Assembly: GCF_003334305.1 (NCBI RefSeq)
Contig: NZ_QOWS01000014.1
Reading direction: 5' to 3' (one strand)
DNA: 64,000 nt
Origin: Escherichia coli
GTDB lineage: Bacteria; Pseudomonadota; Gammaproteobacteria; Enterobacterales; Enterobacteriaceae
The translations under genes were made by a program, and so were the position numbers. Below the pieces are notes generated by a model, which made no database searches, was not told the DNA's origin, and saw only the letters and a list, made by a program, of their open reading frames with translations. Each line of letters begins with the position of its first letter. The stretch's first letter is position 1. Below are positions 57,636 through 58,103 of the stretch, in pieces.

Positions 57636-58103
57636 CGCCCGCAGCCATCACTGACCGCGGGCGAAAGTGTAAAGCAGGTGCCTTACCACTCTGACCTGAC
57701 AACCGGATATGCGGGGATTGCTCCCCGCACAACGGCTACTTCTTCGGTTCGTAAGCGAGAACAGCCTTAAACTCAATATTACGTTCCTTTACGGTGAACT
57801 CACACAGCGAGTCTCCGACCAGAAGCGTAAATCCCAGTACCGTCAAACACAGCACTATGACTGCCACAAGGGCATATTTCGTCAGCATGTTTATATTGCC
57901 TCCATGCGAAGAAGGGACTACCATCCGAGTTGTTGAGGCTCGGAGTGGCAGCCCCAGGATTGATAGAAATATCTCCTGGGGCTTCATCTTTCCAGACCTC
58001 AGAGTTAACCTGAAACCGGAAAGCTTCAGGCACCCGCCGTTATCTTACCCTTCCTCAACAAAATAGCTGTTTATTTATACAGTGAATCCTGTTTCGGACT
58101 TCT
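57636..58103 (-). other. hokE: hok/sok-type type I toxin-antitoxin locus, copy 1 (hok, mok region, antisense sok and fold-back elements)
   Basis: 468-bp unit with a terminal hairpin CGCCCGC-N13-GCGGGCG at 57636-57663, a Hok CDS and an upstream mok-like region; repeated 503 bp downstream. Confidence 0.8.
57736..57888 (-). CDS. hokE: Hok-family membrane toxin (50 aa), copy 1
   Basis: [50 protein letters not shown] preceded by GGAGG; in this copy an upstream ATG (57987) is in frame, giving an 83-aa ORF. Confidence 0.85.

Follow-up and report, generated by a model that had tools for sequence, protein, structure and literature searches.

Variable Phase of the ATG Upstream of hokE in a Leader Probably Constrained as RNA in Escherichia coli

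In the 64,000-nucleotide stretch of Escherichia coli DNA analyzed here (hereafter the window), the intergenic region between entD and ybdK (57400-59000) carries two tandem hokE/sokE type I toxin-antitoxin units, both on the minus strand. The two copies are 94% identical over ~500 nt in an alignment of both units, and because copy 1 lacks one leader nucleotide that copy 2 has, the upstream ATG is in frame with hok in copy 1 and out of frame in copy 2. We consider it likely that this difference is an old and common polymorphism located in an unpaired loop, that the leader is under RNA-structure rather than reading-frame constraint, and that copy 1 represents the K-12-type, probably ancestral, arrangement. 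Under such a constraint, the sole upstream ATG would fall in phase 0, +1 or +2 depending on the allele. Neither a lesion nor a fusion event nor an error, the 83-codon frame of copy 1 is an ordinary polymorphism of a leader constrained as RNA.

Two Complete hokE/sokE Modules Lie in Tandem

Both modules match the Rfam family RF01794 over its full length (86.5 bits for copy 1 and 86.2 bits for copy 2, with a gathering score of 59), the copy 1 match beginning at 58035. In the predicted minimum free energy (MFE) folds of both copies, the tac element GGGUGCCU pairs with the fbi element AGGCACCU. The elements of the two modules are as follows.

57635..58035, minus strand: hokE module copy 1 (entD-proximal), predicted full-length hok mRNA, with ends placed by homology
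58035-58028, minus strand: copy 1 tac, GGGUGCCU, paired with fbi (57683-57676) in the MFE fold
57664-57635, minus strand: copy 1 3' hairpin, at the 3' end of the predicted hok mRNA
57736..57888, minus strand: hokE copy 1 toxin CDS, 50 aa (open reading frame; the identical region is RefSeq hokE WP_000956465.1)
58138..58539, minus strand: hokE module copy 2 (ybdK-proximal), from the RF01794 match, a terminator-like site and the predicted fold
58539-58532, 58186-58179 and 58167-58138, minus strand: copy 2 tac, fbi and terminator, respectively, from the predicted fold
58239..58391, minus strand: hokE copy 2 toxin CDS, 50 aa (open reading frame; RefSeq WP_000956456.1)

The HokE toxin matches Pfam PF01848 (E=1.1e-7), a match confined to residues 38-79 in the 83-aa ORF, and its matches to the NCBIfam Hok models fall below their curated cut-offs. 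The 1601-nt region, used as a query, was covered to at least 80% in 3371 of 5426 complete E. coli genomes, so the tandem layout is common; a contig scan for the locus returned five loci, all from Escherichia. Hok "islets" have been described (bioRxiv 10.1101/2025.08.07.668861).

The K-12 system (b4415/b4835) shares with the window the ybdK-entD locus, the leader, the 99-nt spacing between upstream ATG and hok with the same in-frame 83-aa ORF, and the region complementary to SokE. Unlike the window, which holds two complete units with tac and fbi intact, K-12 has a single unit with IS186 just 3' of hok, and its sequence diverges before the fbi position of the window copies. Its leader differs at a few positions, among them compensatory changes in hairpin 3 (see below).

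IS elements are found repeatedly at this locus. K-12 and ETEC1722 carry IS186/IS421 directly on the 3' side of hok, whereas in EF7-18-58 it separates hokE unit 2 from entD. In an ST131 strain, the leader of unit 1 is interrupted by IS150, and SDR-family oxidoreductase genes replace entD after the tandem in two ST131-type genomes. In strain WB61 (L017), a 44-aa "Hok/Gef family protein" is annotated at 1554-1688 in a unit that aligns with the hok unit over its 3' two-thirds only, and this second unit appears to be a truncated second copy.

One Nucleotide Sets the Phase of the Upstream ATG

The one-nucleotide indel between the copies that the earlier note had reported is borne out by the sequence, the ORFs and the alignment of the two units. 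On the minus strand, copy 1 reads CCCCAGGA-GATATTT and copy 2 CCCCAGGACGATATTT (over a shorter span, CCCCAGGACGATAT); on the plus strand, the same sites read ATATCTCC and ATATCGTCC. The upstream ATG itself lies within GGAAAGATGAAGCCCC. In copy 1 it occupies 57987-57985, 99 nt from the hok ATG at 57888 and in frame with it, and in copy 2 it starts at 58491, 100 nt from the hok ATG at 58391 and out of frame.

Gap between 57974 and 57973, minus strand: indel site in copy 1; the copy 2 base is C on the minus strand and G on the plus strand, at 58477
57736..57987, minus strand: 83-aa ORF of copy 1, from the upstream ATG in the hokE frame to the shared hok stop codon (ORF list; also in K-12)
58303..58491, minus strand: 62-aa out-of-frame ORF of copy 2, from the upstream ATG to a stop inside hok (ORF list)

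The in-frame position of ATG 57987 and the resulting 83-aa ORF are thus confirmed, and the N-terminally extended Hok proposed as its product holds provided that this ATG is used. The 62-aa ORF of copy 2 has no NCBIfam family match. An open frame over 33 codons is unremarkable by our own arithmetic, (61/64)^32 being ~0.2.

A sequencing or assembly error, which the earlier note had kept as an alternative, is refuted as the source of the missing base. Beyond single-base indels being a common error type, nothing speaks for it, and it is made vanishingly improbable by the 1601 nt that are 100% identical in independent complete genomes (from human, fish and broiler chicken), and by the same junction in 4195 genomes, including K-12, and in other Escherichia. 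The 99-nt leader of copy 1 is matched at 99% or more in 1099 genomes.

All Three Phases Occur in Escherichia

We counted both junctions, as well as a second site, in 5426 complete E. coli genomes, using 50-mers designed so that the indel falls within every 28-mer seed. The frequencies below are junction-match estimates rather than full genotypes, and recombinant haplotypes occur (WB61, E. whittamii unit 1).

Copy-1-type junction (no extra base): 4195/5426 genomes
Copy-2-type junction (extra base): 2736/5426 genomes
Second-site deletion (in the loop of the next hairpin): 1121/5426 genomes

As a rough bound of our own arithmetic, an in-frame leader would be present in at least 3074 genomes (57%) even if none of the genomes with the second-site deletion had another in-frame unit. 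We also compared 31 hokE units taken from the window, 14 other E. coli strains and five GTDB Escherichia species genomes. The upstream ATG is kept in 29 of them, representing 15 E. coli strains (including the window) and four other Escherichia species, and its distance to hok takes three values.

100 nt, phase +1, 62-aa ORF: window copy 2; the single hokE of Nissle, UPEC132 and BEN2908
99 nt, phase 0, 83-aa ORF: window copy 1, K-12, O157:H7 unit 2, E. albertii, Escherichia sp. E1V33, both E. whittamii units
98 nt, phase +2, 22-aa ORF: O157:H7 unit 1, ST131 unit 2, both MOD1-EC7003 units

The existence of this third phase, matched in 1121 genomes and with an ORF that stops 27 nt short of hok, at the UAG of GGAUGGUAG, means that the phase of the hokE upstream ATG is not conserved among alleles and orthologues. 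Either tandem position can hold any phase, and each of the three can be the sole phase of a genome. The two indels also combine: E. whittamii unit 1 carries both and is back in frame, and WB61 joins the insertion to K-12-type downstream sequence.

Copy 1 had been regarded as the deviation and copy 2 as the canonical arrangement. The distribution argues for the opposite, as K-12 is in frame, the copy-1-type junction prevails over the copy-2-type (4195 vs 2736 of 5426 genomes), and E. albertii, E1V33 and E. whittamii are in frame. Because the leader is in frame in E. albertii and other species, phase 0 is probably ancestral and copy 2 would carry a derived insertion, although gene conversion between the copies limits what can be concluded on this point.

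The in-frame hokE allele is already catalogued, being that of the K-12 reference and the majority arrangement, and the three-phase polymorphism is a minor addition. In the literature covered, which does not extend to the key paper of 1999, we found no description of this polymorphism.

The Leader Is Conserved as a Structured RNA

We folded an alignment of the leader comprising 17 distinct haplotypes, across which the structure is conserved. The elements to which we refer, given in copy 1 coordinates unless stated, are the following.

57950..57983, minus strand: hairpin 2 (GCCCC...GGGGC, ucb/dcb-like boxes); its plus strand is the SokE terminator stem
57925..57943, minus strand: hairpin 3 (CCGAG...CUCGG), facing the SokE 5' end, with the second phase-changing indel of other strains in its loop
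57899..57903, minus strand: hok Shine-Dalgarno GGAGG, with predicted pairing to CCUUC 11-15 nt upstream
57932..57991, plus strand: predicted SokE of copy 1, by homology to the K-12 sokE b4835 coordinates
58435..58495, plus strand: predicted SokE of copy 2, by homology mapping and fold
57896-57901 and 57919-57924, plus strand: promoter-like -35 (TTGCCT) and -10 (TACCAT) of copy 1 SokE, with a 17-nt spacer

Standard pairs occupy 99.2% of the 748 pair cells of the alignment, and at most 58% after a shift of the partners by 1-3 columns. Pairing reaches 99.3% in helix 3 and 98.5% in helix 4, and helix 6, which joins CCUUC to the GGAGG of the hok Shine-Dalgarno, is invariant and 100% paired. One-sided changes in the leader helices nearly all preserve wobble pairing, and in hairpin 3 two pairs, at columns 96/110 and 98/108, have changed from G-C to A-U in a compensatory manner. 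Both indels fall in unpaired positions, the first (column 63) in the internal loop of hairpin 2 and the second (column 101) in the loop of hairpin 3. When the column 63 base is added to copy 1 or taken out of copy 2, the predicted MFE shifts by 0.3 kcal/mol and the fold stays the same.

Coding constraint follows a different pattern on the two sides of the hok start. In the hok frame, pS is 0.098 and pN 0.014 (pN/pS 0.14; 23 alleles), and the common polymorphisms sit at third codon positions. In the 33-codon extension, all differences are non-synonymous when read in phase 0 (pS 0, pN 0.058; six phase-0 alleles). Small as these samples are (23 hok and six leader alleles), the two patterns point to selection on Hok as a protein and on the extension as an RNA. 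An inactivated locus, the other outcome suggested for copy 1, is unlikely: Hok is intact in all three phase classes and under purifying selection in each, and the tac, fbi and Sok elements are present. That the leader is free of stops in several frames was considered as a sign of selection and set aside, the segments being too short.

The predicted SokE fold is a terminator hairpin followed by a U-rich tail. Its promoter-like hexamers have 8 of 12 consensus matches by eye, and the site was not called by a generic scan with a threshold of 9. As this sigma-70 scan returned no promoter in 57600-58720, the hok and Sok promoters are placed by homology only.

By eye, the copies show nine differences in ~27 nt opposite the SokE 5' end (57925-57958 vs 58428-58461, minus strand; CUGCCACUCCGAGCCUCAACAACUCGG vs CUACCUACCCAAACCUGAACAAUUUGG), the remaining leader being nearly identical between them. 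Since they diverge where the SokE 5' end would pair, each SokE may discriminate its own hok mRNA. Discrimination among paralogues is described for Sib/Ibs.

The Upstream ATG Is Not at the Canonical mok Position

ATG 57987 had been taken for the mok start, a label that rests on ORF reading only. We therefore compared its position with those of known leader ORFs.

mokC (MG1655): 57 nt upstream of hok, in frame, hokC stop shared, 69 aa
mokB (MG1655): 58 nt upstream of hok, out of frame
R1 mok: 58 nt upstream of hok, out of frame (PMC9841398), a distance derived from the start-codon positions given there (mok 117-118, hok 176)
hokE upstream ATG: 98-100 nt upstream of hok, in all three phases

The AUGs of mokC and mokB align directly after the GAGG box, at RF01794 positions ~96-99, and each overlaps the 5' end of its Sok RNA. 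No AUG is present there in hokE, which reads CUCCGAG or CCCAAAC at these positions. The hokE upstream ATG is ~40 nt further 5' than the mokC, mokB and R1 mok starts, at RF01794 position ~50, where it precedes the Sok-terminator hairpin and is complementary to the 3' tail of SokE. As hokE lacks an AUG at the 57-58 nt from hok that separate the known mok starts from it, ATG 57987 is not the canonical mok start and, judging from these alignments, not homologous to it. Mok identification has been called "not trivial" (bioRxiv 10.1101/2025.08.07.668861).

A close parallel in K-12 is mokC/hokC (gef), in which the leader ORF shares the hok stop (mokC 16751..16960, hokC 16751..16903) and MokC is a 69-aa N-terminally extended HokC. 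Unlike the hokE ATG, the mokC AUG is 57 nt upstream, at RF01794 ~97-99, and overlaps the SokC 5' end. The R1 system hok/mok/sok (parB) resembles hokE in its Hok/Gef toxin, its RF01794 fold, its predicted tac-fbi pairing, an antisense Sok whose putative promoter overlaps the hok Shine-Dalgarno region and a hok Shine-Dalgarno predicted to be sequestered; it differs in having mok 58 nt upstream of hok, out of frame, and required, where hokE has no AUG. In R1, mok is experimentally required for Hok synthesis, which needs mok translation only up to the hok Shine-Dalgarno, the amino-acid sequence of Mok being irrelevant (PMC9841398). The hok family already includes both in-frame and out-of-frame leader ORFs.

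If ATG 57987 were nevertheless the true mokE start and its phase mattered, phase 0 would be the functional state, giving an 83-aa pro-toxin or a MokC-like Mok-Hok fusion, and phases +1 and +2 would be regulatory variants or decaying loci. Phase 0 is the commonest and is found in outgroup species, E. whittamii unit 1 restores it by carrying both indels, mokC is in frame with hokC, the mokA stop coordinate is shared with hokA, and the upstream ATG is invariant in the 17 leader haplotypes. This invariance is confounded, however: the flanks, which form a leader helix and the 3' tail of SokE, are equally invariant. Phase +1 is the only phase in the single-hokE B2 strains Nissle, UPEC132 and BEN2908, and phase +2 the only one in MOD1-EC7003, and all four keep an intact Hok; at the peptide level the extension is not conserved, and recombinants in the opposite direction exist, such as the WB61 insertion with K-12-type downstream sequence. 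We regard a phase-dependent mokE as improbable.

Two other candidate leader starts were discarded. A GUG at mRNA positions 3-5 (58033) opens a mok-like frame in phase-0 alleles; it lies inside tac, and there is no evidence of its use. The in-frame AUG at -36 (57924) reads as the Sok -10 box TACCAT on the opposite strand, which accounts for its being conserved, and no Shine-Dalgarno-like sequence was seen before it on reading the sequence.

How Could the Upstream ATG Act on Hok Synthesis?

We propose that the hairpin carrying the indel serves both as a helix of the hok mRNA leader and, on the other strand, as the SokE terminator, and that Hok would be made from its own Shine-Dalgarno and AUG once the CCUUC/GGAGG helix is opened. 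A ribosome starting at the upstream ATG would reach or pass this helix, opening the Shine-Dalgarno in any phase. By our own estimate, its footprint would cover CCUUC when it terminates in phase +2, and in phase 0 the same ribosome would read on into the 83-aa extended Hok, as annotated for MokC/HokC. SokE, which spans the region from the ATG to 44 nt upstream of hok, would block the leader ORF. Because the ribosome would reach the helix in all three phases, phase may be irrelevant to coupling. That the phase +2 ORF ends before the hok Shine-Dalgarno counts against this best explanation. Both the use of the upstream ATG and translational coupling are inferred, and we found no experiment or ribosome profiling in the literature for any hokE start codon, nor anything relevant on the mokE reading frame in a coverage that did not include Pedersen and Gerdes (1999) and Gultyaev et al. 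(2000).

In its fullest form, this would make the leader ORF a phase-indifferent coupling device, in which all phases support Hok, phase 0 also co-produces the 83-aa extended Hok, and a mixed tandem yields two differently expressed toxins. We advance this form only tentatively and think it rather unlikely as a whole.

Alternatively, the upstream ATG might never be used, hokE being a system without mok whose leader ORFs are accidental and whose Hok is made once the mRNA has been processed at its 3' end and has refolded, with ribosomes initiating directly at the hok Shine-Dalgarno. The absence of a hokE AUG at the family-conserved position (RF01794 ~96-99), the MG1655 annotation, which has mokA, mokB and mokC and no mokE, and the unconstrained phase all fit with this. 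So does the setting of the ATG, which in the predicted folds occupies a 4-nt linker between two stable hairpins and whose best Shine-Dalgarno-like sequence (UGAGGU) is buried, with an unpaired probability of 0.02; on these grounds the upstream ATG may just as well not initiate at all. Against it, the hok Shine-Dalgarno is predicted to be sequestered in the invariant helix, its 10-nt distance to the AUG, counted in the sequence, is long, an architecture of this kind needs upstream translation in R1, and SokE complementarity spans the ATG. A hokE that dispenses entirely with leader translation seems to us quite doubtful.

A leader constrained as RNA, which we prefer, has little consequence for this particular genome, since its copy 1 allele is the K-12 arrangement and the 83-aa protein has been deposited many times. 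Its broader value is that near-identical leaders in three phases constitute a natural experiment on how far, and in which frame, leader translation activates hok.

Annotation of the Locus and Other Observations

Gene callers apply the name HokE inconsistently to the 50-, 62- and 83-aa forms, including the out-of-frame 62-aa ORF. Public databases list the exact 83-aa protein of copy 1 under the names HokE and Hok family toxin (ACD09148.1 and others; at least 480 contigs). The K-12-type 83-mer occurs on at least 1000 contigs, and UniRef gives one 83-aa member the name "Regulatory peptide MokC". The 62-aa out-of-frame ORF of copy 2 corresponds to the "small toxic membrane polypeptide HokE" of E. 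coli O103:H2 str. 12009 (BAI29451.1), a name that looks like a mis-annotation.

On the plus strand, PGAP annotates an antisense "hypothetical protein" opposite the hok leader (58421-58690; e.g., WP_009008364.1, ~89 aa). The same ORF is annotated in loci L001, L002 and L006-L016, and it is flagged "frameshifted" in K-12-type alleles. As this flag tracks the same one-nucleotide indel, the antisense ORF looks like an annotation artefact.

The 3' hairpins of the two modules are identical. That of copy 2 (58138-58167) is followed by TTTCGTTTTA and was called terminator-like; that of copy 1 (57635-57664) is followed by ATCGTACCAG, without a T run, and was not. Upstream of entD, a REP-like element (56848-56935) includes a match to Rfam ES036 (CssrF) above the gathering score (56894-56935, plus strand) and a partial naRNA4 match (56848-56889, minus strand).

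Editing of hokE mRNA that affects Cys46, similar to the TadA A-to-I editing of hokB, has been reported (bioRxiv 10.1101/2025.08.07.668861). In both copies of the window, Hok codon 46 (57751-57753 and 58254-58256, minus strand) is UAC (Tyr) followed by G, within GCUUACGAA.
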